Shown piece by piece: positions 1 to 42,075 of a stretch of DNA of 64,000 nt. A program made the position numbers and the translations under genes. The notes beneath the pieces are model-generated. The model did no database searches. It had not been told where the DNA came from and saw only the letters and a list, made by a program, of their open reading frames with translations. The DNA comes from Bryobacteraceae bacterium (GTDB taxonomy: Bacteria; Acidobacteriota; Terriglobia; Bryobacterales; Bryobacteraceae), in NCBI GenBank assembly GCA_049520275.1, contig JBEKPY010000032.1, forward strand, positions 26,277 to 90,276, in the 5' to 3' direction. Within the stretch, counting starts at the first letter, position 1, and each line of letters starts with the position of its first letter.

Positions 1-3000
1 GTGATAAGTGGTCAATTCGGCGCGCTGGTCAGCCGCGACATCCTGGGCCCAAACCCCATCCGTTTGGCGAAAGCGCAACCGCAGGGCTTCATGCCGCTGT
101 ACCGCGCCATCGATGGCCAGTTGCAGCCGTTCTTCGTCGATGCTCGATGGAACCTCCAGCAGAACCGATTGGTTGTAGTGATGCGGATCTACCTTCATTT
201 GGGCAAAAAAGCGGCGCTGGACCGGCGTCAACGGCGAGGGGCCGGCCGCCGGCGTCATTGCCGGACGCGAGCTATCCAGGCGCTGCGCGGCAACAGCGAG
301 CTCCGCAATGGTGGGGTGCTGAAAGATCTGCTTCGGAACCAGCCGAAGTCCTTCTCTCGACGCTCGCGCCACAATCTGCATGGCGATGATGGAGTCGCCG
401 CCCAGGGTGAAGAAACTGTCGTGAATCCCGGGGTTCTGGATGTTAAGAGCCTCACTCCAGATACGGCAAAGAGTCGCCTCTGTCGCGTTGCGCGGCGGAG
501 CGTATCCCGCGCTTCGGGCCTGTGTCAAACGGTCCGGCGCGGGCAGCGCTTTGCGGTCGAGCTTCCCGTTGGCTGTGAGCGGCAGACGGGCCATGCTGAC
601 GAAGAATGCCGGAATCATGTACTCCGGCAGCTTGCGCGACAGCCGATTCGCCAGATGTACGGGGTCCCACTTCCGGCCGTGTTTCAGAGCCACGTACGCG
701 CACAGATATGTTTCCCTGCCGTCGTCGCGGCGATCCATGACGGCGGCGTTTTCCACGCCTTCGATCGCGCTCAGAGCGGCCTCGATCTCGCCCAGCTCGA
801 TGCGATGGCCGCGAATCTTGACCTGATGGTCCTTGCGGCCGAACAGAAGTACATTCCCGTCCGCCGACCAGCATCCCAGGTCCCCCGTACGATACATGCG
901 AACGCCGCGTTCGGTCCGGAATGGATCTTCGCAAAACGCCAGGCTCGTTTTCAGGGAATCGTTCAGATAGCCCCTTCCGACGCCGGTTCCGGAGACACAG
1001 ATTTCTCCTTTGATGCCGGCCGGGCAGAGGTTGCCCTGCTCGTCGACGATATAGATGTGCGTGTTCCGTATCGGTTTGCCGAGAGGAATGCTCGCTGTCT
1101 CCGGCAAACGGCACATCTTGCAATGGGCAATATCGTCGGAAGCCTCGGTCGGCCCGAAGGCATTGACCACCGGAATCGAAGGGAAAAGGCGGAACCACGC
1201 CTCGATCAATTGCGGCTTCACGATCTCGCCGGTCACGCACAGATACGTCAGGGCGGGAAAGGCGTCGCTCCGTTCCAGGCGGGGCAACAGAGCCGCCAGG
1301 TAGGACGGGACCAGTTGCAGAACGGTGACCTGGTCCGATTCGATGCCATCGCGCAAGGCGCCCGGATCCAGCACGACAGCGTCGCTATAAATGACGGTGG
1401 TTCCACCCGCCAGCAGCGCCGCGAAAAACTGCCAGACCGAGATATCGAAGCAGTGTGACGCATTCTGGGCAATCACGCTCTTCGAAGTGATCTCGAAGTC
1501 CTCGACCTTCGCGAGGAAATGATTGAGCATGCCCGCGTGCTCGATCATGACCCCTTTGGGCTTCCCGGTTGAACCGGAGGTAAAAATCACGTACGCCAGA
1601 TCGCCGGGCTGGACGGGAATCCCCAGGTCCGACGCCTCGTAACCGGACGACTCGGCTTCCGTGCGGTCCCAGTCGGCCTGCGTAAGGATCAACTTCGGCC
1701 GAGCCTCGTCCAGAATGGTCCGGATGCGCTCCTCGGGATAACGCGGCTCGATCGGAATGTATGCCGCGCCGCATTTCCAGATGGCGAGGATACACTGCGC
1801 CATCCGTTCGGAGCGCTCCATCACTATGGCGGCAAGGTCCCCCGAGCCCAGTCCTGTCGAACTCCGGAAGAAGCGCGCCAGGCGATTGGCGCGTTCGTTC
1901 AACTCACCGTAGGAAACTGGACGGCCCTCGCAGCGGAGCGCAACGCGTTCGGGATGAGCGCCAGCGCCCTCCTCAAATCGCGCGATGAACGTACGGTCGG
2001 CGTCGAACTCGGCTTTTGTGTTGTTGAAAACTTCGAAAAGCTGTTGTGTTTCGGCGGCAGTAACAATTCGATATTCGCCCAGTCTGCATTCCGGGTGTGC
2101 CGCGAACTCCTCCAAAAGCTGCACATAATGCCCGCCCATGCGGCTGATGGTGGCGCGGCCGAAACGCCGGTCGTCATAGAGCAATTCAATTTGCCACGGA
2201 TCGACGGGAGTAACCTGCAACGTCAGCGGAATGTCCGTGCGGTCGTACACCTCGACATCGCTCACCTCCCATCCACCGGCGCTGCGCTGCAGCGACTGGT
2301 CGAGAGGGTAGTTCATGAAAACGATATTGCTCTCGAAGAGCGGAAGATTGCCCGCAATGCCACTCCACTGCCGAATGTCCGAAAGAGCCGCGTATTCGTA
2401 CGGCGATCGCAGCGCCTGCAACCCCTGCAGGCTCTTCAACCAGGGCACCAGGGCTGCCTGCGGGTCCACCTGCGCGCGAATCGGAACCGTGTTGATGAAA
2501 ACGCCGAGCATCGATTCGATGCCGGCCAGTTCAGGAGGCCGGCCGGCCACGGTAGCACCGAAGACAACGTCCTTCTCGGAACAATATCGAGACAACAGCA
2601 GAGCCCACGCACCCTGCATGATCGCGTTGAGCGTGAGTTGATGCCGGGTGGCGAGCGCGCGCATGCGGTTCGCAAGGCCGGCAGGCGGGGCCATGATCGC
2701 TCGCGCCTCAGCCACGCTCCCCGTGATCGGTCCCGCGCGGTCGGGCAAAGGCGTAGGTCCCTGAAAGCCTTCCAGATGCTGTTGCCAGAACTCGCGTGCC
2801 CGGCCCGAGTTCTGGCGCTGCAGCCACAGGATGAATTCGCGATAGGCAGGCGCCGGCGGCAGCGTGGAACCGTCGCGCTCGCTGAGCTGACGGCACAGAT
2901 GAAACAGCTCCCCAAGTACGATCTGCAAACACCAGCCATCCATGAGCAGGTGATGATGGGTCCAGTAAAACCGGAATTCCGCGTCGCCGGTCTGGACCAG

Positions 3001-3369
3001 ACGGCACCGCATCAACGGCGCCTGGTCGAGACGAAACGGAGTCCTCCGGTCCGCCGCAAGACACTCGCTCCAGCGTTGTCGTTGCGCTTCCCGCTGGGTG
3101 CCCCGCCAGTCTTCGAAGGTCCAGGGAAGAGTGGCCTCCCGCCGGACTACCTGTATCGGCTTGTCGAGACTGTGAGCATGGAAGGACGTGCGCAAAACCG
3201 GCTGGCGATCCACCAGGGCCTGCCAAGCCTGGCGGAATATCGCGGCCCGCAGATCGCCCGAAAAGGTACAGCTCAACTGGCTCAGGTAGGCGGACGACTG
3301 CGGTTCCGAAAGCGCATGGAACAGCATGCCCTTCTGAATCGGAGACAGTTCGTAGATATCCTCGATCAT
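1..3369 (-). CDS. Non-ribosomal peptide synthetase, partial (C-A-T-C..., continues beyond left edge)
   Basis: Manual translation of the minus strand gives an ATG at 3369 with N-terminus MIEDIYELSPIQKGMLFHAL. C domain with HHHLLMDGW; A-domain motifs LSYGELNERANRLA, FTSGSTGKPKGV, NAFGPTEA, GELCVSGTGVGRGY; PCP FFTLGGDSIIAMQ; then start of a further C domain (LTPVQRRFF) running off position 1. Not in the ORF track because no stop lies in the window. Confidence 0.85.
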   Translation of the reverse strand, partial: MIEDIYELSPIQKGMLFHALSEPQSSAYLSQLSCTFSGDLRAAIFRQAWQALVDRQPVLRTSFHAHSLDKPIQVVRREATLPWTFEDWRGTQREAQRQRWSECLAADRRTPFRLDQAPLMRCRLVQTGDAEFRFYWTHHHLLMDGWCLQIVLGELFHLCRQLSERDGSTLPPAPAYREFILWLQRQNSGRAREFWQQHLEGFQGPTPLPDRAGPITGSVAEARAIMAPPAGLANRMRALATRHQLTLNAIMQGAWALLLSRYCSEKDVVFGATVAGRPPELAGIESMLGVFINTVPIRAQVDPQAALVPWLKSLQGLQALRSPYEYAALSDIRQWSGIAGNLPLFESNIVFMNYPLDQSLQRSAGGWEVSDVEVYDRTDIPLTLQVTPVDPWQIELLYDDRRFGRATISRMGGHYVQLLEEFAAHPECRLGEYRIVTAAETQQLFEVFNNTKAEFDADRTFIARFEEGAGAHPERVALRCEGRPVSYGELNERANRLARFFRSSTGLGSGDLAAIVMERSERMAQCILAIWKCGAAYIPIEPRYPEERIRTILDEARPKLILTQADWDRTEAESSGYEASDLGIPVQPGDLAYVIFTSGSTGKPKGVMIEHAGMLNHFLAKVEDFEITSKSVIAQNASHCFDISVWQFFAALLAGGTTVIYSDAVVLDPGALRDGIESDQVTVLQLVPSYLAALLPRLERSDAFPALTYLCVTGEIVKPQLIEAWFRLFPSIPVVNAFGPTEASDDIAHCKMCRLPETASIPLGKPIRNTHIYIVDEQGNLCPAGIKGEICVSGTGVGRGYLNDSLKTSLAFCEDPFRTERGVRMYRTGDLGCWSADGNVLLFGRKDHQVKIRGHRIELGEIEAALSAIEGVENAAVMDRRDDGRETYLCAYVALKHGRKWDPVHLANRLSRKLPEYMIPAFFVSMARLPLTANGKLDRKALPAPDRLTQARSAGYAPPRNATEATLCRIWSEALNIQNPGIHDSFFTLGGDSIIAMQIVARASREGLRLVPKQIFQHPTIAELAVAAQRLDSSRPAMTPAAGPSPLTPVQRRFFAQMKVDPHHYNQSVLLEVPSSIDEERLQLAIDGAVQRHEALRLRFRQTDGVWAQDVAADQRAELTTYH

Positions 3370-3414
3370 CGTGAGATTAGAGGACCCGCCGGGTGTCCTT
3401 GCATCGTGCAAGCA

Positions 3415-6400
3415 TCAGGAGTTGCCCATGCCGGCGATCAACGCGTCCAGTTCCGTTTGATCGAGCCGCGCGCCCGGAAAGTCGGACGGCGTATAGGCCG
3501 GCGAATCCGCTGTCCGGCAGCTATCCACGAGTGCGCCGAGGATGACGGTGTACCGTTGCGCCAGCCGCTCGATGGTGGCGCGATCGTGCATGTTCTTACT
3601 GAACGTCCACGTCATCGCGAGTTGTCCGGCAGTCACGATCCCGTTGATTTCGAGAACGTGCGACCGCCGGTTAGCGGAAGCTACCTCGGGACTGCTCAAT
3701 CCGAGGACGGGTTTCCATGCATCGCCGGCCGTTAGCACACGATCGGTCTGGCCCAGATAGTTAAAAAGCACCTCCGCGGCGGGTTGCGCCAGGACCTCGG
3801 CGTCGCGCCTGAGGTAGCGAGCCAGGCCATAGCCAAAACCTCGCAAAGGTATCGCGCGAAGCTGTTCCTTGACCGCCTTCAAAGCCTGCACCGGTGAAGC
3901 CCCGGATTCGCCGCGCAAAAGCACCGGATACAACGCCGTGAACCAACCGGCCGTTCTCGAGCAATCGAGATCGGGAAACAGGTCTTCGCGCCCGTGCCCT
4001 TCCATGTCCACCAGCAGCCCGGACGAGCCAGTCCATTCCATGAAGGTCAGCAAAAGGGCGGTCAGAAGAATATCGTCGATTCGTGTATTGAAGGCGCGGG
4101 GCGCTTCATGAAGCAGATCGTGCGTGCGGGACCGATCCAGAGAGCACTGCACGTCCGCAGCGGAGGCAAACGTGCCGCTGTCGGACGAGCCTGCGCGATC
4201 CTTCGGGATGGACGTTACCGGAGCCGCACACACATGCCTCCAGTAAGACAGCCCTTCGAAATCGGTCCGGCTGAATTCGTGCAGGCGCGACGACCATTCC
4301 ATGAAGGAGCTGGTCTTCGCCGGAAGCTCCGCGCCGCGGCACAGGGCGTACAGATCCTCCAGCAGGATTCGCCAGGAGACGCCGTCAATGGCCAGATGAT
4401 GCACCGCGACGAGCAGAAGCGATGGACCGCTTCCCGGTCGCCGGAATAGATGAACCCGGATCAGCGGCCCGTGGGCCAGATCCATGCCGCTCTGAATCTG
4501 GGCGGCGCGGCGCTCCACTTCCGAATCCGTGGCCACGTTCGACCAGGTGAAGGGGATCTCCGCGCCCGGCACATCGTATCGTTGTTCCCACTTCTCGCCG
4601 ATCTTGGCAAACCGCAGGCGAAGCGCGTCGTGGTGCTTCAACAACCCCTCCACGGCGAACTGCACCGCCTCCGGCGCCAGGTCCGGAGGGACTTCCAGCA
4701 TCACCGACTGGTTGAAGTGGTGCGGAGCCGCGAAGCTCTGCGAGAAGAACCACTCCTGCATGGGCGCAAGCGGCACGGCGCCCGTGACTGCACCTTGCTC
4801 CGCCACTACTGCCCGCGCGTCGACGGCCACGGCCGCCAGCTCCGCGATCGTCTGATGCTCGAAGAACTGCTGCGCGGACAACTTGATCCCCGCGTGGTTG
4901 GCACGAGCTACCGCCTGGATGATGAGAATCGAGTCGCCTCCGAGCTCGAAGAAGTTGTCGCGAATGCCGACCCGGTCGAGCCCCAACACTTCGGCCCAGA
5001 TGCGCGCCACACGCTCCTGAATTTCCGATTCGGGAGCGTCCCCGCCGCCACCAGCCGCCGCGGCCTCTCTGGGAGCGGGCAGAGCCTTACGGTCGATCTT
5101 GCCGTTGGCCGTCAGCGGCATGTCGTCCAAAACGACGAATACGGGAGGCACCATGAACTCGGGCAACCGGTTTTTCAGGTACTCGCGGAGATCCGCGGGC
5201 GTGACCGGCCCATCCACCGTCACATAGGCAGCCAGGCGTTTCTCCCCGGGCTGGTTCTCATGAACCACAACCACCGCATCGCGGATTCGGCGATGCTGCG
5301 CGAGCACCGACTCGATCTCACCCAGTTCGACGCGGTACCCGCGGATCTTTACCTGAGTGTCCTTGCGGCCAATCAACTCCAACTCTCCGTCCGGCAACCA
5401 CACACCCAGATCGCCGGTGCGGTAGAGCCGCTCCCCATCCTGGAATGGGTTTGGAACGAACGCCGTCTCCGTCTGGTCGGGACGATTCAGATATCCTCGC
5501 GCCAGGCCCACGCCTGCAATACAGATTTCGCCGATGCACCCTTCGGGAACCAGCTCCAGGTTTGCATCCAGCAAATAGATGGCGATGTTATCGATCGCCT
5601 TCCCGATCGGAATCCTCGCCGCATAGGAAGCGAGCGGGTCCACACGATGATGCGTCACGCAGACCGTCGCTTCGGTCGGCCCATAGGAGTTGTAATAAGC
5701 GATGTTCCTGGCGAAATCGCGCGCGTCGTCGACTTTGGCGTTGTCCCCCGCACTGACGATTCGCTTCACCGAATGCAGCTTGCCGCGATCCAGTGCGGCC
5801 AGGTACACGGGAGGCGCGGTGATGGTGGTCACGCCGTGCTTCTGAACCAGCTCCGAAAACTGTGCCGGGTCCTTGATCGCGGCGCGCGGGATGGTGACCA
5901 CGGTTCCTCCCGCCATCAATGGCACCAGGACCTCGAACAGGGAGGAATCGAAGCCGGCGGAATAGAATTGGGAAAAACGATCGGAGGCGTCGATCCCGAA
6001 CGCGGCAATATGATGCAGCGCCATGTTGACGAAGCCGCGGTGCTCCAGAATCACACCCTTGGGTTTGCCGGTCGAACCGGAGGTATAGATAATGTAGGCG
6101 GCGTCGTGAGGCTGGGCTGCTGGCGATGGATCGTCTGTGGACGTTTCGAGCGCGTCCAACTGAAGATCGAGCGCGAACATAGGCGTGGCATAGAACGCGC
6201 TCAACTGCGACATTTGCTCCGAGTGAATCAGCAGGACCCGCACACCGGCATCGTCGATCAGGAACTGAAGCCGTTCTTCCGGGTACTCGGGGTCCAGAGG
6301 GAGATAGACGCAACCGGCTTTCAGAACCGCCAGGAGCGCCGTAATCCACGATTCGGAAGCGTCCGATACGACACCCACCACATCGCCGGTCTGCAACCCA

Positions 6401-7290
6401 TATTCGCTTTTGAGGAAGTGAGCGAGCCGGTTCGCGCGCTCATTCAACTCGGCGTAGGTCAGCCCCGCGCCGTCGTTGACAACCGCGAGCGCGCCGGGCT
6501 GGCTGGCCGCCCGTTGCTCGAACACCTCCGCGATGGAAACCGCGGGCAACACCCGTTGCGTCTCGTGGCGAGCGTACCGCGATCGCTCCGCGTCATCCAT
6601 TAGCGAAACTCCGCTCAACGGACGATCGATGTCTTCATAGCCGGCGAGAACATTTCCGAGGTGGCGTGCGAAATGACTGAGATACTCAGGGGAGAAGGCG
6701 GCGGCGGCCCCGCTCAGATGGATGCGCAAGCCGCGCCCGCGCCTGACTTCAATCGCGAGATCGAAGCGCTCCGGATTCTCCAGGCGGGCGTGCACACCCT
6801 CAAACTGAAGCGACACGTTGGTCGACAAACTGGCTGCGTTTCCCGACTGCTTAGCTGCATCCGCGATGGAAAAATCCCGATAGGTGTAGCTATCCGAGAC
6901 CGTGCGCCGGATGGCGTTCAGATACTCCCGGACGGCGCCATCCGCCGGAACCTCCGCAATCAAAGGCAGGGATCCGCTTTCGCCCGCCATCAAGGGAGAC
7001 TCCACCTGCACCACGGGCGATCCGCTGTAGGCGCTCAAAACGTGAAATATTCCGCCGGCAATGACCACGAACGCACCCAGGTCGTTACCGCCGGAGAGAT
7101 CGTCGATGAGCGCAAGGGCGGACGGAGGCAACTCCACTTCCTGCTCTATTCGCCCGCTCCGTGGAAGCGCGTACGCCCGCTGATGCTGTCGTAGCTGGAA
7201 GCCGCCACGAAGTTTCCGAATCGCGAGCTTCCAGAAGTTCGCGTGTTCGCAATACCCTTCGCTGGTTAGTGTCTGATTCATCGCATTCAT
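3415..7290 (-). CDS. Non-ribosomal peptide synthetase: truncated (C-terminal lobe only) C domain - A - T - E
   Basis: 1291-aa ORF. A motifs LTYAELNERANRLAHFL, YTSGSTGKPKGV, YGPTEATV, GELCIAGVGLARGY, KIRGYRVELGEIE; PCP FFELGGDSILIIQ. Final domain carries HHLAIDGVSWRIL, typical of epimerisation domains. The first ~200 aa resemble only the C-terminal half of a C domain; no HHxxxDG. Confidence 0.85.
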   Translation of the reverse strand: MNAMNQTLTSEGYCEHANFWKLAIRKLRGGFQLRQHQRAYALPRSGRIEQEVELPPSALALIDDLSGGNDLGAFVVIAGGIFHVLSAYSGSPVVQVESPLMAGESGSLPLIAEVPADGAVREYLNAIRRTVSDSYTYRDFSIADAAKQSGNAASLSTNVSLQFEGVHARLENPERFDLAIEVRRGRGLRIHLSGAAAAFSPEYLSHFARHLGNVLAGYEDIDRPLSGVSLMDDAERSRYARHETQRVLPAVSIAEVFEQRAASQPGALAVVNDGAGLTYAELNERANRLAHFLKSEYGLQTGDVVGVVSDASESWITALLAVLKAGCVYLPLDPEYPEERLQFLIDDAGVRVLLIHSEQMSQLSAFYATPMFALDLQLDALETSTDDPSPAAQPHDAAYIIYTSGSTGKPKGVILEHRGFVNMALHHIAAFGIDASDRFSQFYSAGFDSSLFEVLVPLMAGGTVVTIPRAAIKDPAQFSELVQKHGVTTITAPPVYLAALDRGKLHSVKRIVSAGDNAKVDDARDFARNIAYYNSYGPTEATVCVTHHRVDPLASYAARIPIGKAIDNIAIYLLDANLELVPEGCIGEICIAGVGLARGYLNRPDQTETAFVPNPFQDGERLYRTGDLGVWLPDGELELIGRKDTQVKIRGYRVELGEIESVLAQHRRIRDAVVVVHENQPGEKRLAAYVTVDGPVTPADLREYLKNRLPEFMVPPVFVVLDDMPLTANGKIDRKALPAPREAAAAGGGGDAPESEIQERVARIWAEVLGLDRVGIRDNFFELGGDSILIIQAVARANHAGIKLSAQQFFEHQTIAELAAVAVDARAVVAEQGAVTGAVPLAPMQEWFFSQSFAAPHHFNQSVMLEVPPDLAPEAVQFAVEGLLKHHDALRLRFAKIGEKWEQRYDVPGAEIPFTWSNVATDSEVERRAAQIQSGMDLAHGPLIRVHLFRRPGSGPSLLLVAVHHLAIDGVSWRILLEDLYALCRGAELPAKTSSFMEWSSRLHEFSRTDFEGLSYWRHVCAAPVTSIPKDRAGSSDSGTFASAADVQCSLDRSRTHDLLHEAPRAFNTRIDDILLTALLLTFMEWTGSSGLLVDMEGHGREDLFPDLDCSRTAGWFTALYPVLLRGESGASPVQALKAVKEQLRAIPLRGFGYGLARYLRRDAEVLAQPAAEVLFNYLGQTDRVLTAGDAWKPVLGLSSPEVASANRRSHVLEINGIVTAGQLAMTWTFSKNMHDRATIERLAQRYTVILGALVDSCRTADSPAYTPSDFPGARLDQTELDALIAGMGNS

Positions 7291-7296
7291 TTTGAT

Positions 7297-19697: not shown

Positions 19698-19705
19698 GGC
19701 GCGAT

Positions 19706-22999: not shown

Positions 23000-25900
23000 G
23001 GTCCGCCAAATCCGTTCGCCGGAACACCTGGAACGAAAACGATCCGCCCGGCTGACGGTTCAGGACGGTCTGCATTTCAGCCTGGGAGCCGGCCTCGAAG
23101 AACACCGGCTGGTGAAGCTGTAAGTCGGAAACTTGGTAGTGTGAGCCCGGCGTTGTTTCGGACGCCGCCCGCAAGGCTATTTCGACGTAGGCGGAATACG
23201 GCAGTACCGCCGCACCCATCAGGCAATGGCCCTGTATGTAGTCCGTGCTCCCCGGTATTCGCGATCGCCAGACGTACGTCTCCGGCAGATGCGCGAGCCC
23301 TTCCATGCGCTCCCCAAGGAGAGGGTGCGGCTTCTCCGCGGCTTTCGACACGAACCCCGGAGCGGCGTCGATCCAATAGCGCTCGCGTTGGAACGGATAG
23401 GTGGGGAGGCCCGCAAGCCGCTGGCGGGAAGACCCGCAATCCACCGCGCGCCAATTCACCTCGCTGCCTCGCATGTACAGCTCGCCGAGGCTCTCCAGCA
23501 ACGTGCTCCAGTTCCCGCGGTGCTGATCGAGGCTGGCCAGCCAGGCGTGCTTTTCCGGTGCAATGCACCTCTTCCCCATGGTCAGCAACATTGGTTTCAC
23601 ACCGATTTCCAGAAAGGCATCGACCCCTGCGCCAGCCAGGAATTGCATTGCCGCCATGAATTGCACAGGCTCCATGGCGTTGCGGCTCCAGTACCCGGCA
23701 GTCGCAAGCTCGGCTCCGGCTGGGCCGCCGGACACGGTGGATACCACCGGCACCGAGGGGGCCCGGAACCTCACCATACGAGCCGCAGCTTCGAACTCGG
23801 TCAACATAGGCCTCATCAGCGGCGAGTGAAACGCATGGGAAACGGAAAGAGGCGCGGTGTGTGCACCGGAGCGCTCCAGCGCCGCTGCAATCTCCTGCAC
23901 GGCCCGCGATTCGCCGGAAATCACCACCTGCCGGGGACCGTTGATCGCCGCGATCGACACCGCGTCCGCATGGCGCGCCACCAGGTCGGCGACCCGGTCC
24001 TGTCCCGCCAAAACAGACAGCATCGCTCCGTTGCGGCACAGTGCCTTCGTCAAAGCCGCGCGTCGAGCGACTAATATGAGGCCATCCTCGAGGCTGAACA
24101 CGCCAGCCGCACAGGCCGCCGCGTATTCTCCAATGCTGTGGCCCATGACGATGGAGGGTTCGATTCCCCAGCTTTTCCACATCTCGGTAAGAGCGGCTTC
24201 CATCGCGAACAGAATCGGCTGGGTCCAGACCGTTTCGTCGATTCGCGACGGTTGGCCGGGTGGCGCAAACAAAACCTCCAGCAGCGAGCCTTCCGAGTGA
24301 GGCCGCAGGATTTCGGAGCAGCGGTCGAGCGTTTGCCGGAAAACCGGCTGGGTGTCGTACAACTCGCGGCCCATCCCGGCGTATTGCGACCCCTGACCCG
24401 TGTAGACGAACGCGATCCGCGGCGGTCGCGACGGCGTCCGCGCATCGAAGCCCGCCCGCAGTTTCTCGAGCAGCTCTCCAGCCGACTTCGCGATCAAAGC
24501 TCTCCGCACGGGGAAGTGTTCTCTGCCGGAACAGACCGTGAAAGCAAAGTCGCCTAATGAAACTCGTGGATTGGCCGCCAGAAAGCCGACGTACTGTTTG
24601 CAGACCTCGTCGAGAGCCCGCGGAGTCCTGGCTGAAAGTGCGACCGGATGGATTCCACCTTCCGCACCGTTCGCTTTCGGCCGATTGGGCCCTTCCTCAA
24701 TCACCACGTGAGCATTGGTTCCGCCGAATCCGAAAGAACTGACGCCCGCCAGGCGCTTCCTCTCACCGCGCGGCCACGGTGTCAGCGCCAGGGGGATGCG
24801 CACGCGCGTGCCGTCTTTCGCGGCGCTCCGGTTGAGCCGCTGGAAATGCAAATGCGGGGGAATCTCCTCGTACCGCAAAGACAGCACTGTCTTGATCAAA
24901 CCGGCGATTCCGGCCGCGGCTTCCAGATGTCCGATGTTCGTCTTGACGGAACCGGCGAAAATGGAGCCAGTGCGCTCGGCCCCGAAAACGGCTTTGAGAG
25001 ATGCCAATTCCATCGCGTCACCCAGGGGGGTGCCGGTGCCGTGCGCCTCCACATAGCCGGCTTCGGAAGGATCCACGCCGCTGCGGCGCCAGGCGTCCCG
25101 CATTACGGCTTGCTGGGCCGGACCGTTGGGCGCGGTGAGTCCGTTGGTCATTCCGTCCTGGTTTACCGCCGAGCCGCGAATCACGGCCAGCACCGGATCG
25201 CCATCGCGGAGCGCATCGCTCAGGCGTTTCAGGACGACAAGTCCCGCGCCCTCGCCCCGCACGTAGCCGCTCGCGCTCTCGTCAAAAGTCCGGCAACGTC
25301 CGTCCGCGGAAAGCATCCCCGCGCGAGCGAACATCACGCTCAGGTGCGGCGCGAGGATGAGATTCACTCCGCCCGCCAGGGCCATGTCGCAGGCGCCGCT
25401 CAGAAGGCTCTCCGCCGCCTGGTGCACCGCGACCAGCGACGAGGAACACGCCGTGTCCACGGCCCAACTGGGGCCGCGAAGATCCAGCAGATAAGAGATC
25501 CTGTTGGCGGCGATGCTGAGGGCGTTGCCCGTTGCCGCATATGGCTCCGTGGCGGAAGCGTGGTTGCTCTGCAGCCTCGCGTAATCGGAGTTGCTGATTC
25601 CAATGAAAACGCCGGTTCTTGTGCCGCCCAGACTGTTCGGAGGAATCCCCGCGTCTTCCAGCGCTTCGCGGGCGATCTCCAGAAGCAGGCGCTGCTGAGG
25701 GTCCATGGCTTCCGCTTCACGCCTCGTGATTTCGAAGAACTCCGCATCGAAGTTTTCGACTTCATCCAGCAGCCCGGCCCATTCCGGAGCTGTCGAATCA
25801 GGCCAGCCGAATCTTCTGAACCGGGCTCCCAGAGCGGGAGCGATCGCGCTCCGTCCCTCCCGCAGCATGCGCCAGAACGCTTCGGGATTGCGCGCTCCCG

Positions 25901-27992
25901 GAAAGCGGCAGCCCATGCCAACGATCGCCACGGCATCTTTCCCGCCCGCTGCCGAGGGGGCCGTCGGAGCCTGGTCCATTTGCGGGGAAAGATGGCGCGC
26001 CAGCGCTTCGATGGTGGGATAGTCGTACAGCAGCGTGGCCGCCAGCGGACGGCCTAGCCACTCCTGGAGCTCTCCCGACAGCGCCACCGCGTCTTTGGAA
26101 TCGATGCCGAAGTGGCTGAACGGATCGCTTGCGCGAACGGTGTGGACCGGCACGCGCAGCTTGTCCGCCACCTTCTCCATCAGCCACGCGCGGATGGAGC
26201 CGGTATCGACGGCGCGTGGGTTGGCCTTCATGACTTTCGCCGGCGCCGGATTCTCCGGGCGGCGCCATTCCCCTGCAATCTGCAACCCTTCATCCGCGAG
26301 GAAACTCGCGCGGCAGAGGTGCCGTTGAATCTTCCCGCTGGAAGTCCTCGGGATGGTCACGGGCTGGACGAGCAACGCCGCGTATAGTTCAATGTCATGC
26401 TGCTCGGCCACCGCCCGGCGAATTGCCGCGACAGTTTCTTCGACATCCAGCTTGCGCAGATGTTCGCGTTTCACCTCGCAGACCACCACCAGCCGTTCTT
26501 CCCCGTCGATATCCACGCTCACGGCAGCGGCTGCGTTCAAAGCGAGGGCGGCGTGGCTGGCTTCCACCGTACGTTCGATATCCTGCGGGTGATGATTCCG
26601 GCCGCGGATGATGATCAGGTCCTTGATGCGCCCGGAAACGAAAAGCTCGCCGCCGAGCAGGAATCCAAGATCGCCGGTCCGCAGGAACGGACCGTCGCCG
26701 CCGGACAGCCGTGCCTGGAAGACGCGCGCAGTGTCTGCGTCGCGGCCCCAGTACCCGGCCGCGATGTGCGGTCCAGCCGCCCAGATTTCGCCAATCTGTC
26801 CGCTTTCCACGGGTGCGCAGGTATCCGGGTTCACGATCGCGAGCCGCGTACCGGCGGCTGCTTGTCCGGAACTCACCAGTCGCCGCGCGTTGGTCTCCTG
26901 CGTGGAAGCCACTGCCGCACCGGCCTCCAATGACCGGCCGTCGAACGAAGCCTCGACGTGCGGCTGATCCGGCTTGCTTCCCGTGACCAGCAGCGTGGCC
27001 TCCGCCAGGCCGTAACAGGGGTAGGGAGCCTCCGGGCGAAGCCCGCACGCGCGAAACGCCTCCACGAACCGGTGCAAGGTCTCGGCACGAACCGGCTCCG
27101 AACCGTTGTACGCAATCCGCAGGCTGCTGAGATCCAAACCCGCCTTTTGTTCCTCCGTCACCTTCCTGGCACACAAATCGTAAGCGGAGTTCGGCCCGCC
27201 CGTCGTGGTAGCCCGGTATTTCGAGATGGCCTGCAACCAGCGGACTGGCTTCTGAATGAACGAAGCCGGTTCCATCAACACCGACAGAATGCCCAGATGC
27301 AAAGGGTGCAGTGTGTTCCCGATCAAGCCCATATCGTGAAACAGAGGCAGCCAGGATGCGAAGATCGTGGTTTGATCGTGGCCAAAACAATGCCCGATCA
27401 TCTCCGAGTTGTGGAGAAGGTTTCCATGGCTCACCATCACACCCTTCGGCGAGCCCGTGGACCCGGACGTGTATTGCAGAAACGCCAGGGCATCCGGATC
27501 GAGGGAACCGTCCACCCAGAAATCGGCGTGGGGATCCTGGCCGTCGTCGGTGGCAATCCAACGCGATGTCCGGAGCCCGTCGATAACCGCCGCTTGCCGT
27601 TCCAGTCCCTCAAGCTTTGCGGCGGTGGTCAAGGCGAAAACCGCGCCGCAATCCGCAACAATCGACTGTAAGCGTGCGGCGTAACGGTTCTGCCGCGGCG
27701 GATACGCGGGCACGGCGACCGCACCGGCGTATAGGCAGCCCATGAACGCGCTGATGAACTCGAGGCTCGGTGGATAAAGAAGAAGCACCCGGTCGCCCGG
27801 GTCGACAGCCGCCTGCAGCCTCGCTCCAATTTGACGAGCCCGTGAATCCAGCGCCTGGAACGTGAGACTGCCCGATTCCACCTCGCCGTTTTCGAGAAAA
27901 ACATACGCCGTCCGATCGGGCCGGGTTCGCGCGTGATGTCGCAGCACTTCCACGAAGCTTCGAAACTCGGGATTTATAGAGAGGACCTTCAT
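22908..27992 (-). CDS. Fatty acyl-AMP ligase (FAAL)-ACP-KS-AT-DH(N-terminal hot-dog) loading/extension subunit
   Basis: 1694 aa. FAAL N-terminus MKVLSINPEFRSFVEVLRHHA... YTSGSTGSPKGVMVSHGNLLHN; ACP (GIDSKDAVAL); KS (DTACSSSL, EAHGTGT, NIGH); cis-AT (GHSIGEYAA, YTGQGSQ); then a DH first hot-dog with HxxxGxxxxP (IQGHCLMGAAVLP). The ORF ends right after this half-DH. Confidence 0.9.
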   Translation of the reverse strand: MKVLSINPEFRSFVEVLRHHARTRPDRTAYVFLENGEVESGSLTFQALDSRARQIGARLQAAVDPGDRVLLLYPPSLEFISAFMGCLYAGAVAVPAYPPRQNRYAARLQSIVADCGAVFALTTAAKLEGLERQAAVIDGLRTSRWIATDDGQDPHADFWVDGSLDPDALAFLQYTSGSTGSPKGVMVSHGNLLHNSEMIGHCFGHDQTTIFASWLPLFHDMGLIGNTLHPLHLGILSVLMEPASFIQKPVRWLQAISKYRATTTGGPNSAYDLCARKVTEEQKAGLDLSSLRIAYNGSEPVRAETLHRFVEAFRACGLRPEAPYPCYGLAEATLLVTGSKPDQPHVEASFDGRSLEAGAAVASTQETNARRLVSSGQAAAGTRLAIVNPDTCAPVESGQIGEIWAAGPHIAAGYWGRDADTARVFQARLSGGDGPFLRTGDLGFLLGGELFVSGRIKDLIIIRGRNHHPQDIERTVEASHAALALNAAAAVSVDIDGEERLVVVCEVKREHLRKLDVEETVAAIRRAVAEQHDIELYAALLVQPVTIPRTSSGKIQRHLCRASFLADEGLQIAGEWRRPENPAPAKVMKANPRAVDTGSIRAWLMEKVADKLRVPVHTVRASDPFSHFGIDSKDAVALSGELQEWLGRPLAATLLYDYPTIEALARHLSPQMDQAPTAPSAAGGKDAVAIVGMGCRFPGARNPEAFWRMLREGRSAIAPALGARFRRFGWPDSTAPEWAGLLDEVENFDAEFFEITRREAEAMDPQQRLLLEIAREALEDAGIPPNSLGGTRTGVFIGISNSDYARLQSNHASATEPYAATGNALSIAANRISYLLDLRGPSWAVDTACSSSLVAVHQAAESLLSGACDMALAGGVNLILAPHLSVMFARAGMLSADGRCRTFDESASGYVRGEGAGLVVLKRLSDALRDGDPVLAVIRGSAVNQDGMTNGLTAPNGPAQQAVMRDAWRRSGVDPSEAGYVEAHGTGTPLGDAMELASLKAVFGAERTGSIFAGSVKTNIGHLEAAAGIAGLIKTVLSLRYEEIPPHLHFQRLNRSAAKDGTRVRIPLALTPWPRGERKRLAGVSSFGFGGTNAHVVIEEGPNRPKANGAEGGIHPVALSARTPRALDEVCKQYVGFLAANPRVSLGDFAFTVCSGREHFPVRRALIAKSAGELLEKLRAGFDARTPSRPPRIAFVYTGQGSQYAGMGRELYDTQPVFRQTLDRCSEILRPHSEGSLLEVLFAPPGQPSRIDETVWTQPILFAMEAALTEMWKSWGIEPSIVMGHSIGEYAAACAAGVFSLEDGLILVARRAALTKALCRNGAMLSVLAGQDRVADLVARHADAVSIAAINGPRQVVISGESRAVQEIAAALERSGAHTAPLSVSHAFHSPLMRPMLTEFEAAARMVRFRAPSVPVVSTVSGGPAGAELATAGYWSRNAMEPVQFMAAMQFLAGAGVDAFLEIGVKPMLLTMGKRCIAPEKHAWLASLDQHRGNWSTLLESLGELYMRGSEVNWRAVDCGSSRQRLAGLPTYPFQRERYWIDAAPGFVSKAAEKPHPLLGERMEGLAHLPETYVWRSRIPGSTDYIQGHCLMGAAVLPYSAYVEIALRAASETTPGSHYQVSDLQLHQPVFFEAGSQAEMQTVLNRQPGGSFSFQVFRRTDLADREWSLCASARLQATNGRHPREVRVDVLCRQ

Positions 27993-28010
27993 GAGACCAG
28001 CCGGCCGTTT

Positions 28011-29108
28011 CTACGCGTGAGTGCTCGCGGCATTCCCGATCTCCAGCGGCGCATACCTTCGTTCCGGCCAGGGCGTGGGAACGAAGCCGTCGATAATCGT
28101 GCCAATGCCCTCGGCTCGGGCGAGGTCCACCGCCAGGCGCGCCACCGCGAGATCCAGAATGCCCAGCCCAAACGGGCTGAAGATCACCGGCTCGCCGCCA
28201 CGGCGGGCTTTTTGCCCCGATAGAATCGCGCCCAGAGTGGCGCGGATACAATCGCGGTTCCCCGCCTTCTGCACCGCCAGATCAAGCGAAGTCCGATTGG
28301 AACAAACATGCTCGACGTCGTCGACAACGTTGTCGCCCGCGAGGATTACTTCCGGCGCGAGATCGCGCAACGAGATATGTAAGATGACCGAATTCTCGCG
28401 GCAGCCGTCCAGGTTGTCCAGATGCGGAATCGTTGCGTTGGTCGCCAGGCTGACGACATCCGCTTCGCGGAACAGGGTAGTGGCCGAAGGCGCCAATGCG
28501 ATGTGTCGAGTCCCGCAGAGATCGGGGCATTTCTCCAAAAACCTGCGAGCCTGGGCCGGGTCTGTATCGAAGAGCAGGAACTCCGCAATTTCGGGATGCG
28601 TCGCCAGCAGGAACCGGACAGTCTCGAAATTGATCGGACCGCAACCCAGAATGCCAACCGAATGAATCGAGCGGCCCTCGCGAAGGACCGATGCCGCCAG
28701 CGCCGCGCTTGCCGCGGTGCGGCACGCGTTGATTACGGACCCTTCCAGGATCGCTTCAGGTTGTCCCGTTCGCGTCGAGTTCAGAATCAATGTGGCGGAG
28801 GCCCGGTCCATGCCCGATCGGATGTTGTCGGGGAAAGATGCTACCCATTTCATTCCCGCGACCTGGAACGACCCGCCCAAGAACGCGGGTTTGGGAATGA
28901 TCCGATCCCTTGTATTGCCGGGGAACCGCAGGAAAGGGCAATTGGGAGCGCTGTAGTCACCCTGCTCCTTCAGCAGGTAAGCTTGCCTGACGCTCTCCAT
29001 GATCGCCGCCTCGCGCCCCTCGAAGAGTCGGATGATCTCGTTCCCGCGCAGCAGAGTCACCCCGCCGGTACTTTCCAGTGAGCGCTTCACGTTAATTTCC
29101 CGATTCAT
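28011..29108 (-). CDS. sbnB: SbnB-like NAD-dependent ornithine cyclodeaminase/mu-crystallin family enzyme (2,3-diaminopropionate biosynthesis)
   Basis: Track ORF 28011..29213. Alignment to SbnB suggests the start MNREINVKRSLESTGG at 29108. OCD/mu-crystallin family Rossmann motif GILGCGPI. Immediately downstream of sbnA, with a 16-nt overlap. Confidence 0.7.
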   Translation of the reverse strand: MNREINVKRSLESTGGVTLLRGNEIIRLFEGREAAIMESVRQAYLLKEQGDYSAPNCPFLRFPGNTRDRIIPKPAFLGGSFQVAGMKWVASFPDNIRSGMDRASATLILNSTRTGQPEAILEGSVINACRTAASAALAASVLREGRSIHSVGILGCGPINFETVRFLLATHPEIAEFLLFDTDPAQARRFLEKCPDLCGTRHIALAPSATTLFREADVVSLATNATIPHLDNLDGCRENSVILHISLRDLAPEVILAGDNVVDDVEHVCSNRTSLDLAVQKAGNRDCIRATLGAILSGQKARRGGEPVIFSPFGLGILDLAVARLAVDLARAEGIGTIIDGFVPTPWPERRYAPLEIGNAASTHA

Positions 29109-30111
29109 GAAGCCATGGCCTGAAAGTGCCGCCGAAATGCGTGGAAATCCATTCCCGTGAGTACACCGTTTCGAAATATCGGTCCCCCCGGTCGCAGAGA
29201 ATCGCCACGACAATTGCCCCCGCCGGAATCCGGGTTCTCATCCTGCCAATCGCGGAAATCACCGCTCCCGAGGAGCCACCGGCCAGGATAGCCTCGCTCT
29301 GGAGCAGACGGAAGCAACCCTCCACGCATTCGCGGTCGGACACATGTACACAGTCGTCTTCGAGGCCGCTCTCGTACAGCGCCGGTCTTCTCGATGCGCC
29401 GTGCCCCGGGATGAGCCGCCGCTGTGGCTCGTTCCCAAAGATCACGCTGCCCACGGCGTCCACCGCGATGATCTTAGTGCTCAAAGCGTGATCGCGCACG
29501 TAGTCCCGGCAGCCGCGCAGCGTGCCACAGGTGCTGGTCGCAACAAACAGATAATCCACCTGGCGCCCCAGATCCCGATCGAGCTCCCCACACATGTCGT
29601 ATTGTGCCCGAGGGTTGCTGGGATTGGCGTATTGATCGATCCAGAAGCTGTCGGCAATGCGCGCCTGCAGTTGTTTCACGCGGTTCAGGCGAGCCGTCAA
29701 AAGCTCTCCGCTAACTGGATCGGCCTGGTCCACGACTTCAACCTCAGCCCCGTATGCCTTCAGGATTGCGATGTGGCTTACTGTCGTCCGGCTGTCGACC
29801 ACGCACACGAAACGAAGCTTCAACAATGCGCACGCTTGCGCCAGTCCGACGCCGAGATTGCCCGAGCTCGACTCGATGATGGTTGTGCGCGGCCCTACAT
29901 CTCCGCGGTCACAGGCGTCCAGCAGCATTCCCCGAGCAGATCGGTCCTTACCACTGCCTCCGGGATTCATCATTTCGAGCTTGGCGTACAGCGCGAAATC
30001 GATCGGTGCGAACACCCGCGTGAGCTGCACCAGGGGAGTATTCCCCACCGCAGCAAGAACGCCGCTCGCCTCCGTGGAAGTGTCTAACCGGGCTTTTGCT
30101 TCAGCGGCCAC
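29092..30111 (-). CDS. sbnA: SbnA-like PLP-dependent cysteine-synthase-family enzyme (N-(2-amino-2-carboxyethyl)-glutamate synthase)
   Basis: 339 aa; GNTPLV, PGGSGKDRSA lysine-PLP motif, GTGGT-like glycine loop. Pairs with the sbnB homologue as in staphyloferrin B Dap supply. Confidence 0.7.
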   Translation of the reverse strand: MAAEAKARLDTSTEASGVLAAVGNTPLVQLTRVFAPIDFALYAKLEMMNPGGSGKDRSARGMLLDACDRGDVGPRTTIIESSSGNLGVGLAQACALLKLRFVCVVDSRTTVSHIAILKAYGAEVEVVDQADPVSGELLTARLNRVKQLQARIADSFWIDQYANPSNPRAQYDMCGELDRDLGRQVDYLFVATSTCGTLRGCRDYVRDHALSTKIIAVDAVGSVIFGNEPQRRLIPGHGASRRPALYESGLEDDCVHVSDRECVEGCFRLLQSEAILAGGSSGAVISAIGRMRTRIPAGAIVVAILCDRGDRYFETVYSREWISTHFGGTFRPWLHESGN

Positions 30112-40400: not shown

Positions 40401-40494
40401 TGGGCTGGGCCTGGGCCAGCACGCCCGAGATGACCAGCGCAAGCGTCGGACCGGCCGCTCGAAACGAGAAACGCCGATAAGCTTCCTTTGTCAT
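37453..40494 (-). CDS. Secreted bifunctional-architecture protein: N-terminal YVTN-type beta-propeller + C-terminal phosphoesterase family (phospholipase C/AcpA acid-phosphatase-like)
   Basis: 1013 aa; signal peptide; repeated propeller blades (LYVTNGNLN, FLYVAEDQSDTVDVID); phosphoesterase signature VKHVIFIIKENRTYDQVLG and DDAQDGGDHVDSHRS. RBS AAGGAG before the ATG at 40494. Confidence 0.75.
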   Translation of the reverse strand: MTKEAYRRFSFRAAGPTLALVISGVLAQAQPSPQFLPNMGQQITPLAPTGSAFQPLNPGLADKPDWLAGQAVSTVVSPNGKTLLVLTSGFNRVYNTDTVPAVTSAATPPWHPPDSNEYVFIYDISNLTPTQTQVLQVPNTYNGIVFDPSGTHFYVAGGPNDNLHIYSLSPATPSAPATWAEDPSSPLPLGHSAGGVGLSVSACAAGVAISSDGQTLVVVNYYNDSITVFTGGYGAWLKQAELDLRPGKSASNPQQGVPGGEYPFWVAVKGKGQSATAYVSSIRDREIDVVNLGGTPAVAARIHVTGQPNRMTLNAAQTFLYVAEDQSDTVDVIDTVKNAVVETIPVVASVVPSPVAQYKGANPNSVTLSEPDEKQLYVTNGNLNCIAVVALGGTNSGDHVVGLIPTGWYPNSVSVVHAGGASPLSPASVYAANGKSPTGPNPGFCYGGYGPPLSKTCMESNQYNPQLTKAGLQSFPLPEPAQLATLTQQVAANNHFAGTESASDAAVMAAVRAGVKHVIFIIKENRTYDQVLGDLGIGNGDPDLTEFGEAITPNLHNLARSFVTLDNFLDTAEVSYDGWLWSTSAQAPDVVERQYPVAYALRGTSLDSDGLNRNVNVAIPTLAGRLAANPLTPQDPDALAGQTNVSAPDGPENEINTGYLWNAALRAGLRVRNYGFFVDGTRYQLPPTLSRYAIPVLRDPFATRTQVAFPANADLAPFTDPYFRGFDNALPDYWRYTEWVRDFDARYVNGHHAGRSTEDLPALTLVRLMHDHTGNYTTGSGGPGAIDGVNTPDLEVADNDYAVGLLVQKIASSVYANSTLIFIVEDDAQDGGDHVDSHRSIAFVAGAWVKQGALVSTPYNTINFLRTIEEVLGLPPMNLNDALAAPMADIFNTTPSPWSFTPAPAPILYNTSLPLPPAPTGMVAPKPAHDAKYWARVTRGMDFSDADRVDPALFNSILWKGMMGDKPYPAAPSGMDLRQNREELLARYRLSQKRKTAAEPRQKAPPAPKAGTD

Positions 40495-42073: not shown

Positions 42074-42075
42074 AC

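Follow-up and report, generated by a model that had tools for sequence, protein, structure and literature searches.

A predicted occidiofungin/burkholdine-family PKS-NRPS cluster with genes for diaminopropionate supply in an uncultured acidobacterium

Analysis of a 64,000-nt stretch of Bryobacteraceae DNA (the window) revealed a 30-kb block that is very probably the upstream two thirds of an occidiofungin/burkholdine-family PKS-NRPS cluster in an uncultured acidobacterium. An earlier note on this DNA had found no described pathway to match; seven core genes are, on the contrary, colinear with ocfJ-I-H-G-F-E-D in the cluster of the Burkholderia cepacia complex (MIBiG BGC0001711, as cited in bioRxiv 10.1101/2025.10.02.680145). 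The encoded proteins share about 48 to 63% amino acid identity with their counterparts in the B. arboris ocf region, and gene sizes run parallel to the published ocf table; Pfam architectures were checked directly for OcfJ, OcfI, OcfH, and OcfD. A MIBiG entry with the same gene order was thus largely found, but the sequences are only ~50% identical and the L-2,3-diaminopropionate (Dap) module is new to the family.

Positions 1 to 30111 hold eight tightly packed, co-directional minus-strand genes, and ORF translation together with Pfam/NCBIfam scans bore out the order previously described: sbnA, sbnB, FAAL-ACP-KS-AT-DH (N-terminal half), LLM-DH (C-terminal part)-KR-ACP, KS-KR-ACP-KS-ACP-AMT-C-A-T-C, a CmlA-type diiron hydroxylase, (N-terminal region)-A-T-E, and C-A-T-E, the last gene reaching past the left end of the window. 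These genes and a divergently transcribed transporter gene are as follows.

29092-30111, minus strand: sbnA homologue (TIGR03945 equivalog, 400.5 bits versus a cutoff of 349.95; Pfam PALP)
28011-29108, minus strand: sbnB homologue (TIGR03944 equivalog, 396.3 bits versus a cutoff of 326.9; OCD_Mu_crystall)
22908-27992, minus strand: g6, OcfJ homologue (Pfam AMP-binding/DIP2-like [FAAL]-PP-KS-AT-DH_N)
26295-27944, minus strand: FAAL domain of g6 (Pfam; PDB FAAL matches)
24843-25937, minus strand: KS domain of g6 (Pfam)
23475-24410, minus strand: AT domain of g6 (Pfam; motifs GHSIG, HAFH)
23016-23327, minus strand: N-terminal half of the g6 DH domain (Pfam DH_N; HxxxGxxxxP intact)
19706-22942, minus strand: g5, OcfI homologue (Pfam/NCBIfam LLM-DH-KR-PP)
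21914-22936, minus strand: LLM monooxygenase domain of g5 (TIGR04020 MupA/Atu3671 family, 479 bits)
8892-19697, minus strand: g4, OcfH homologue (Pfam on ten overlapping pieces, KS-KR-PP-KS-PP-Aminotran_3-C-A-PP-C)
13467-14543, minus strand: AMT domain of g4 (Aminotran_3)
7297-8895, minus strand: g3, OcfG homologue (CmlA_N, 286 bits, plus metallo-beta-lactamase fold)
3415-7290, minus strand: g2, OcfF homologue (~250-aa N-terminal region, then A-PP-E by Pfam)
1-3369, minus strand: g1, 5' part of an OcfE homologue (C-A-PP plus the start of a Condensation-family domain by Pfam)
562-1977, minus strand: A domain of g1 (code DIWQCTADD, Dab/Dap type)
30717-33284, plus strand: OcfA-like cyclic-peptide export ABC transporter with a C-terminal SPFH/Band 7 domain (TIGR01194, ABC_tran plus Band_7)

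The spacing of at most 18 bp given in the earlier note was found at every junction except g2/g1, where 45 nt precede the ATG. The sbnA/sbnB junction is a 17-nt overlap or a 1-nt gap, depending on whether sbnB starts at ATG (29108) or GTG (29090); the others are an 18-nt gap (sbnB/g6), a 35-nt overlap (g6/g5), an 8-nt gap (g5/g4), an ATGA overlap (g4/g3), and a 6-nt gap (g3/g2). The true start of g4 is the ATG at 19697, versus 20183 in the ORF listing. It is quite unlikely that the block is a silent or decaying remnant from which no product is made. Such a reading could draw on the occidiofungin-like BGC already reported in Acidobacteriaceae strain FHG110511, whose extracts lacked anti-Candida activity (bioRxiv 10.1101/2025.10.02.680145), and on the fact that ambR-type regulators were not seen near the cluster; however, all eight reading frames are unbroken across 30 kb, the KS Cys/His, AT GHSIG/HAFH, KR, diiron-ligand, and HHxxxDG catalytic motifs are intact, and an orthologous cluster is kept at 85 to 89% amino acid identity in a second genome, the closest relative, a Bryobacterales (Acidobacteriota) MAG (L006).

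In the PKS part, g6 (51% identical to B. arboris OcfJ) is, by its domains, predicted to carry out loading and to begin PKS module 1, which g5 (LLM, C-terminal part of DH, KR, and ACP; 52% identical to OcfI, with identical Pfam architecture) is predicted to complete. The FAAL and LLM assignments of the earlier note were upheld, the top PDB matches being FAALs for the former (7r7g at 6e-172, with FadD32 also matched) and PuwE for the latter (6ket, 4.8e-112). Three colinear segments of g4 align with OcfH at 51 to 65% identity, and its domains make up module 2 (KS-KR-ACP), module 3 (KS-ACP-AMT), and the module for the first amino acid (C-A-T-C); no AT domain was found in g4 by Pfam on the ten overlapping pieces. 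The AMT call likewise stands, with the aminotransferase domain of mycosubtilin MycA as the top PDB match (6kfm, 1.6e-148). Since the DH whose parts lie on g6 and g5 keeps an intact His motif, dehydration may occur.

Downstream of the PKS part, g3 by its sequence encodes a putative CmlA-family non-heme diiron beta-hydroxylase, as had been proposed: it matches 8a90 at 1.5e-125 and CmlA (4jo0) at 6.5e-112, has a complete diiron ligand motif (H304-S-H-H-D-H X66 E X25 D X26 E), and is 63% identical to OcfG. Its substrate is likely the second amino acid, that of g2, which is 48% identical to OcfF from end to end and carries E-domain motifs (HHLAIDGVS, EGHGRE, FNYLG), a T motif (GGDSI), and an aromatic-like A-domain code (DSFTVASVC). 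The "half C" domain suggested at its N terminus has no Pfam match; compared with a profile built from C domains of the same cluster, the region aligns weakly to the C-terminal lobe. In g1, the first C domain is DCL-like (motif HHLLMDGWC), and the fourth domain, previously taken for another C domain, is an epimerization domain (HHLAIDAVS, EGHGRD). A full g1 orthologue of 3006 aa (C-A-T-E-C-A-T-C), found on a Logan contig (L001) of which 15.4 kb was examined, places the full-length form at 48% identity to OcfE over 2-3006. The gene after g1 lies outside the window and is inferred from an 81%-identical orthologue (L072) and the Logan contig; it is 40 to 46% identical to OcfD, with the same Asn and Ser codes, and in L072 the last NRPS module includes an A domain, whose code is Glu-like. 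The cluster thus does run off the left end, as the earlier note had it, and the TE missed there is present in L072.

Both sbnA and sbnB score above their NCBIfam equivalog cutoffs, in agreement with their original assignment; their products are the predicted PLP-dependent enzyme of the first step and NAD-dependent enzyme of the second step of L-Dap synthesis. No counterpart of sbnA was found in the Burkholderia ocf region, whereas in L006 it is 88% identical and in unchanged position, and the adjacency of sbnAB to g6 recurs in both L006 and L044. A Dap-like A-domain code had been expected in the cluster, and with an extraction procedure that returned DAWTIAAIC for GrsA, the A domain of g1 (A3) gave DIWQCTADD, of the Dab/Dap type, which alone does not separate Dap from 2,4-Dab; the orthologue has DIWEVTADD and OcfE-A1 (DABA5) DIWELTADD. 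An ocf-type pathway is also conceivable, though unlikely, in which Dap enters through the first A domain of g4 (A1), in place of the OcfH Ser module, and A3 takes 2,4-Dab whose synthesis is encoded elsewhere in the genome. A1 could be such a module: its code, DVFSQAIVY, differs fully from the OcfH Ser code (DVWHVSLVD) and matched no assignable code, Ser is isosteric with Dap, and the A3 code of the orthologue is one residue from the OcfE DABA code. Against this, an NMR-verified Dap residue in chitinopeptin has a DIWELTAD-type code (DiWeLtaDK; PMC9248904 Table S7), and no DABA transaminase homologue was found in the window, L001, L006, or L072, where an OcfL query matches the AMT domain only. 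Moreover, sbnA/sbnB replace the DABA transaminase gene ocfL, and the simplest match for this exchange is the module that formerly took DABA.

With A3 as the Dap module, the domains suggest the following route. The FAAL of g6 would adenylate a long-chain fatty acid and load the first ACP; module 1 (KS-AT-split DH-LLM-KR-ACP) would extend it with malonate and reduce the beta-keto group, its MupA/PuwE-type flavin monooxygenase domain presumably hydroxylating the alpha-carbon at this step. Module 2 would add a second beta-hydroxyl, and module 3 would extend once more and transaminate the beta-keto group, giving a 3-amino-5,6,7-trihydroxy fatty acyl thioester; we infer that the single AT of g6 serves all three modules. 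The PKS domain order thus predicts exactly the fatty acid of occidiofungin, whose NAA2 carries C3-N, C5-OH, C6-OH, and C7-O-xylose on a C18 chain (PMC10897925 Table 2). The C domain after AMT would begin a peptide of seven amino acids: a small residue (DVFSQAIVY); an aromatic residue, beta-hydroxylated on its carrier protein by g3 and then epimerized; L-Dap from SbnA/SbnB, activated by the DIW(E/Q)xTAD-type A domain and then epimerized; a residue whose code family is shared with the occidiofungin Gly6 module; and Asn, D-Ser, and a Glu-like residue, all encoded on the next gene. The terminal TE would release the product, probably as a macrolactam. As a prediction from domains, the product class first proposed holds: a lipopeptide that has a beta-amino, polyhydroxy fatty acyl chain and contains Dap, D-residues, and a beta-hydroxy amino acid.

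This cluster and ocf share an identical PKS tailoring set (FAAL, LLM, two KRs, and AMT), a CmlA-type hydroxylase gene before the A-T-E module, a terminal TE, an ABC exporter of the cyclic-peptide type (divergent or flanking), and E domains after residues 2, 3, and 6, positions at which BHY4, DABA5, and Ser8 are reported in occidiofungin. They differ in host (here an acidobacterium), in the first residue's code (not Ser here), and in AT placement: the window has a single complete AT in module 1, whereas OcfJ has no Pfam AT and OcfH has an AT fragment in module 2 and a full AT in module 3. OcfD, in addition, ends in C-T-TE without the A domain of the L072-type last module. No homologues of ocfC (xylosyltransferase), ocfK, ocfM, or ocfN occur in the sequence examined, so tailoring differs from that of ocf.

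It is very improbable that this is an independent iturin/mycosubtilin- or puwainaphycin-type beta-amino lipopeptide pathway whose likeness to ocf reflects reuse of common domains. The nearest solved structures for AMT and LLM are indeed those of mycosubtilin (6kfm) and puwainaphycin (6ket), but the PDB holds no ocf proteins and these matches therefore do not rank ocf. MycA likewise uses a KS-ACP-AMT-C arrangement to introduce the beta-amino group, but this Bacillus system lacks the LLM, the extra reducing modules, the CmlA-type enzyme, and Dap, and its gene order is not that of the window. Puwainaphycin/minutissamide pathways also start with a FAAL, have an LLM-type oxygenase domain in line within the PKS part, and include an AMT, and genes like g6/g5 occur in many cyanobacterial loci; these, however, are only 36 to 46% identical in g5 and have no colinear g4 PKS part downstream. 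Burkholderia ocf, by contrast, matches 7/7 genes in order, hydroxylase included, and also shares the unusual N-terminal regions found in g2 and in the last gene. Chitinopeptin (Chitinophaga) is likewise a lipopeptide NRPS system with an sbnA/sbnB Dap subcluster, a similar Dap-module code, and a CmlA-type beta-hydroxylase, but it has no AMT or beta-amino fatty acid, makes peptides of 14 to 16 residues, and belongs to another architecture and phylum.

By its description in the preprint (10.1101/2025.10.02.680145), the FHG110511 cluster is also an acidobacterial PKS/NRPS hybrid grouping with BGC0001711; its module arrangement is conserved and its A-domain predictions deviate, and the strain is from another order than L006. 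Beside the eight-gene block, the divergent ABC transporter, which scores 340 bits against TIGR01194 (cutoff, 286) and is 31 to 32% identical to the ocfA region, is the probable exporter of the predicted product; in L006 it is 83% identical and its position is unchanged.

The known occidiofungin/burkholdine pathway of Burkholderia (ocf; MIBiG BGC0001711) has, in the cluster at positions 1-30111, a diverged variant of the Dap type, Dap being L-2,3-diaminopropionate; the earlier note had regarded the combination as undescribed, a view that no longer holds. Precedents exist for every component and for the overall logic, and the cluster is no new kind of biochemistry. Its minus strand carries eight long ORFs, all uninterrupted, and ORF listing with Pfam and NCBIfam searches bears out the eight-gene block first described, with minor corrections. 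Neighboring genes overlap or are separated by gaps of 1 to 18 nt, in line with the reported limit of 18 bp, with the exception of the junction before g1, where the gap is 45 nt. A start of g4 at TTG 20183 was rejected because the 162 extra residues are of low complexity and overlap g5, and the KS starts just past ATG 19697. G+C is 60-66% across the whole window, and an Rfam scan of the window gave no matches.

Features of the cluster region
29092-30111, minus strand: sbnA, above the NCBI equivalog threshold
28011-29108, minus strand: sbnB, above the NCBI equivalog threshold
22908-27992, minus strand: g6, FAAL-ACP-KS-AT-DH (N-terminal half) (Pfam, NCBIfam)
19706-22942, minus strand: g5, LLM-DH (C part)-KR-ACP; LLM of the MupA/Atu3671 family, 479 bits
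8892-19697, minus strand: g4, KS-KR-ACP-KS-ACP-AMT-C-A-T-C, AT absent (Pfam)
7297-8895, minus strand: g3, CmlA_N and metallo-beta-lactamase fold (Pfam)
3415-7290, minus strand: g2, about 250 aa, then A-T-E (Pfam)
1-3369, minus strand: g1, C-A-T and the start of another Condensation-family domain (Pfam); runs off the left end
30717-33284, plus strand: cyclic-peptide export ABC transporter with fused SPFH domain, divergent from the cluster

Judged by domain families and matches to solved structures, the component calls made from the raw sequence were correct. SbnA and SbnB scored 400.5 bits against TIGR03945 (cutoff, 349.95) and 396.3 bits against TIGR03944 (cutoff, 326.9), respectively, and their genes are adjacent, overlapping or 1 nt apart. 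The N-terminal domain of g6 is clearly FAAL-like; in PDB searches it matched solved FAALs at 6e-172 to 1e-73, against about 1e-45 for NRPS A domains, and in Pfam a PP-binding domain comes next after PF23024. In g4, a class III aminotransferase domain follows a KS-ACP pair and precedes a C domain, the iturin-type arrangement, and it matched the aminotransferase domain of mycosubtilin MycA in the PDB at 1.6e-148, the next class being GSA aminomutases at 1e-56. The LLM domain of g5 scored 479 bits against TIGR04020 (cutoff, 244), sits inside a PKS module as in the MupA/PuwE type, and matched PuwE, a domain of puwainaphycin synthetase, at 4.8e-112; we infer that it performs alpha-hydroxylation. 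Protein g3 belongs to the CmlA family (6.5e-112 against CmlA in the PDB) and retains every diiron ligand, H304-S-H-H-D-H X66 E X25 D X26 E, at the spacing given in Table S5 of PMC9248904. The placement of g3 ahead of the A-T-E gene, together with its OcfG/OcfF counterparts, suggests that it would act on an amino acid bound to a carrier protein. The KS Cys/His, AT GHSIG/HAFH, KR, and HHxxxDG motifs are intact in the cluster, the AT motifs of g6 being of the malonyl type.

When g5 was searched by tblastn against plasmid and megaplasmid records, the leading matches were in Burkholderia arboris and Burkholderia sp. FXe9 (50-52% identity over 96-97% of the protein), and the FXe9 annotation has the ocf neighborhood in the same gene order. 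With B. arboris NZ_CP101526.1 as the tblastn target, the matches to all the window proteins formed one colinear series, ocfJ-I-H-G-F-E-D; the full-length g1 (3006 aa) was taken from a Logan contig bearing an identical g2.

Identity of window proteins to B. arboris counterparts (tblastn)
g6 and OcfJ: 51%
g5 and OcfI: 52%
g4 and OcfH: 51-65%, in three ordered segments
g3 and OcfG: 63%
g2 and OcfF: 48%
full-length g1 and OcfE: 48%, residues 2 to 3006
ABC transporter and OcfA: 31%

Gene sizes in the window parallel the published ocf table, which lists ocfD at 9495, ocfE at 9066, ocfF at 3921, ocfG (hydroxylase) at 1617, ocfH (hybrid NRPS-PKS) at 13410, ocfI (flavin monooxygenase) at 3324, and ocfJ at 4428 bp (PMC9494966). 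With OcfJ, OcfI, and OcfH included in the Pfam analysis, the FAAL start, KS..LLM..KR-ACP, KS-KR-ACP, and KS-ACP-AMT are common to both systems. The two differ in diamino acid supply: sbnA and sbnB, for which there are no counterparts in the B. arboris ocf region, replace ocfL, the transaminase gene for 2,4-diaminobutyrate (DABA); in the window as well as in related loci, the in-line AMT domain was all that an OcfL query matched, leaving no candidate for DABA supply there. Neither ocfC (xylosyltransferase), ocfK (TauD type), ocfM, nor ocfN (free thioesterase) had a significant tblastn or tblastx match in the window, the Logan contig with full g1, a Bryobacterales MAG, or the contig bearing an orthologue of the last NRPS gene (L072), a scope that stops short of about 6 kb past the TE. 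The ABC exporter, assigned to TIGR01194, carries its C-terminal SPFH/Band 7 domain at residues 616-784; because the OcfA region aligns to only the first ~590 residues, Burkholderia does not share this fusion.

The fatty amino acid of occidiofungin, NAA2, is a C18 chain with N at C3, hydroxyl groups at C5 and at C6, and xylose O-linked to C7 (PMC10897925). In the window cluster, a FAAL-loaded acid processed by KS-AT-[DH]-LLM-KR-ACP would acquire a beta- and an alpha-hydroxyl, KS-KR-ACP would then provide a further beta-hydroxyl, and KS-ACP-AMT would install a beta-amino group. The predicted acyl substitution is exactly the NAA2 pattern, 3-amino-5,6,7-trihydroxy, and the Pfam domains of the PKS part include all that such a fatty acid calls for, as regards substitution pattern and not chain length. 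The N-terminal half of the module 1 DH (23016-23327, HxxxGxxxxP intact) ends g6, and the rest, with HPGFLD, is found at 21413-21865 behind the LLM of g5. Both the oxygenase and the break between the proteins therefore fall within the DH, which is probably inactive. The DH of OcfJ/OcfI is split in the same arrangement. Placement of the AT domains differs, being complete in g6 and absent from g4 in the window, whereas the KS-AT linker is all that OcfJ has, OcfH module 2 has a 50-residue AT fragment, and OcfH module 3 has a full AT; the three modules must share one AT in either system.

The analysis also covered parts of three related contigs (Logan SRR13621567_18771 [31,369 bp], GenBank PLRS01000152.1, and JGI Ga0182013_10000500). 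The fourth domain of g1 had been read as a second C domain; because E signature motifs (HHLxIDxVS, EGHGRE/D, and FNYLG) follow the third amino acid module, it is an E domain. The same motifs, behind GGDSI carriers, occur after amino acid modules 2, 3, and 6, and the positions of occidiofungin reported with epimerase domains are BHY4, D-DABA5, and D-Ser8; the window cluster, taken together with L072, and occidiofungin thus have E domains at the same three positions. On the Logan contig, the gene after g1 encodes a protein of 3637 aa, the first 311 of which were examined, and a protein database search with its N-terminus returned no homologue. Its orthologue on the JGI contig, 81% identical, reads (N-terminal region)-A-T-C-A-T-E-C-A-T-TE, and the assembly line therefore takes in seven amino acids before its terminal thioesterase, modules 5 to 7 and the TE being seen in L072, outside the window. 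The alignment of this orthologue with OcfD spans residues 13-2756 and 3276-3635; the ~520 aa between are the A domain missing from OcfD, which ends in C-T-TE by Pfam. The last module thus has its own A domain in the acidobacterial version (C-A-T-TE) and none in OcfD, as seen at the B. arboris OcfD C-terminus (10743-13664 of ocf region L005). Homology links the N-terminal region of g2 with that of the last NRPS gene, and both with the N-termini of OcfF and OcfD. Pfam gave no Condensation match for the first 250 aa of g2 at an E value of ≤10, and a home-made C-domain profile produced weak colinear matches to both regions, in the C-terminal lobe; their identity as "half C" domains is plausible.

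A-domain codes were extracted by alignment to a GrsA fragment, the GrsA control returning the textbook DAWTIAAIC.

A-domain codes in assembly order and their ocf counterparts
A1: DVFSQAIVY; ocf, DVWHVSLVD (OcfH, Ser type)
A2: DSFTVASVC; ocf, DGMNIASVC (OcfF)
A3: DIWQCTADD (orthologue, DIWEVTADD); ocf, DIWELTADD (OcfE-A1, DABA5)
A4: DIWQVIADS; ocf, DIWQLIADS (OcfE-A2, Gly6 position)
A5 (orthologue): DFTKIGEVG; ocf, DFTKIGEVG (OcfD-A1, Asn position)
A6 (orthologue): DVWHISLVD; ocf, DVWHVSLVD (OcfD-A2, Ser position)
A7 (orthologue): DTKDLGVVD; ocf, none (A domain absent from OcfD)

The predicted first and last residues, aa1 and aa7, differ from those of occidiofungin; the A7 code resembles a presumed Glu code, DAKDLGVV. 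Dap could alternatively enter at A1, the code of which presumably bears a remote resemblance to an Ala code. A3, by comparison, occupies the DABA position of occidiofungin in a cluster from which an ocfL homologue is absent. It had been anticipated that one code would resemble Dap-activating codes, and A3 does so; it is credible as the Dap module because DiWeLtaDK is documented in chitinopeptins as the code of an NMR-verified Dap residue, from clusters that also bear sbnA and sbnB (PMC9248904, Table S7). A full-text literature search on the A-domain codes found no paper. We place Dap at aa3 with moderate confidence, and the product class proposed in the earlier note, a beta-amino, polyhydroxylated lipopeptide with Dap, was right.

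The comparison also bears on the Burkholderia pathway. OcfJ has been described in occidiofungin papers as the NRPS incorporating Asn1 (PMC9494966, PMC10897925), and a genome-mining paper predicted "Ile" for its adenylation domain. By Pfam, B. arboris OcfJ (37647-42056 of ocf region L004) is AMP-binding/DIP2-like-ACP-KS-linker-DH_N, an order that g6 shares from the AMP-binding domain through the KS. Because g6 is FAAL-like, OcfJ is 51% identical to it, and seven A domains cover seven residues in the acidobacterial version with g6/OcfJ left out of the count, the alignments suggest that OcfJ would load the fatty acid rather than act as the Asn1 module and that the A-less last module of OcfD would receive Asn in trans. 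The seven-A-domain version would in this way aid the reading of the Burkholderia pathway, supporting a FAAL-initiated model and exposing the A-less OcfD module. Tentatively, at a little under an even chance, uncultured bog Acidobacteriota (Bryobacterales) make a Dap-containing, probably nonglycosylated analogue of the actin-targeting antifungal occidiofungin on an assembly line that represents the family in its "complete" form, beginning with a FAAL, keeping the module 1 AT intact, and providing an A domain for each of the seven residues. The cluster is distinct in its diamino acid, first and last residues, and tailoring, and comes from a phylum with almost no characterized natural products. 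Its value is moderate: it offers, from a phylum not yet explored, a source of new congeners of an antifungal with clinical relevance, as well as exchangeable engineering parts from a diverged assembly line and a comparative key to the Burkholderia pathway.

Exact copies of g2 were found on metagenomic contigs only, and a search for g3 on other contigs found no exact record. Relatives were sought by scanning one genome per species with a g5/OcfI alignment. The Bryobacterales MAG bog_375 has an identical layout (ABC / sbnA-sbnB-g6-g5-g4) at 83-89% identity; judged by this nearest relative, the window most likely derives from a Bryobacterales member. Pyrinomonadaceae and Blastocatellia MAGs show 49-59% identity; immediately upstream of the g6 homologue, one of these loci has both sbnA and sbnB, and another has sbnA without sbnB. 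Burkholderia loci (n = 14) show 50-54% identity and are without sbnAB; cyanobacterial and other more distant loci show 36-46%. In three Blastocatellia/Pyrinomonadaceae MAGs (L044, L007, and L008), the AMT equivalent lies ~1000 residues further from the start of the g4 homologue than in the window, pointing to an additional PKS module or to AT domains that were kept. An uncultured Solibacteraceae MAG (L059) has a CmlA-type gene 58% identical to g3 behind a much shorter g4-like segment, with sbnA/sbnB homologues (40-42%) downstream on the opposite strand. In a 2025 preprint (10.1101/2025.10.02.680145), an Acidobacteriaceae isolate is already reported to have an occidiofungin-like cluster, one that falls into a group with MIBiG BGC0001711.

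The window genes to the right of the ABC transporter look to have no tie to secondary metabolism. Four minus-strand genes at 37453-45678 encode a protein of 1013 aa that weakly matches beta-propeller lactonase and phosphoesterase families, two histidine phosphatase (branch 2) proteins, and a secretin; this run may be a secreted phosphatase system unconnected with the cluster. Positions 50000-56000 have the lowest G+C of the window (about 0.60) and a strongly negative GC skew, and contain a 481-aa ORF (50941-52386) and a 155-aa ORF without a Pfam family as well as a small HTH protein. At 54646-60014, a LysR regulator is divergent from a homocitrate/isopropylmalate-synthase-like gene, next to which are an Iso_dh dehydrogenase, an aconitase-family large subunit, and an ORF of ~190 aa, possibly for the aconitase small subunit. 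ARAGORN called an 83-nt tRNA-Glu(CTC) at 56847-56929 (minus strand), overlapping the isopropylmalate/isocitrate dehydrogenase ORF (56775-58031; Pfam match from residue 63) in its 5' extension; the call is doubtful because Rfam at the gathering threshold shows no tRNA there. A second PALP enzyme is encoded at 61148-62218.
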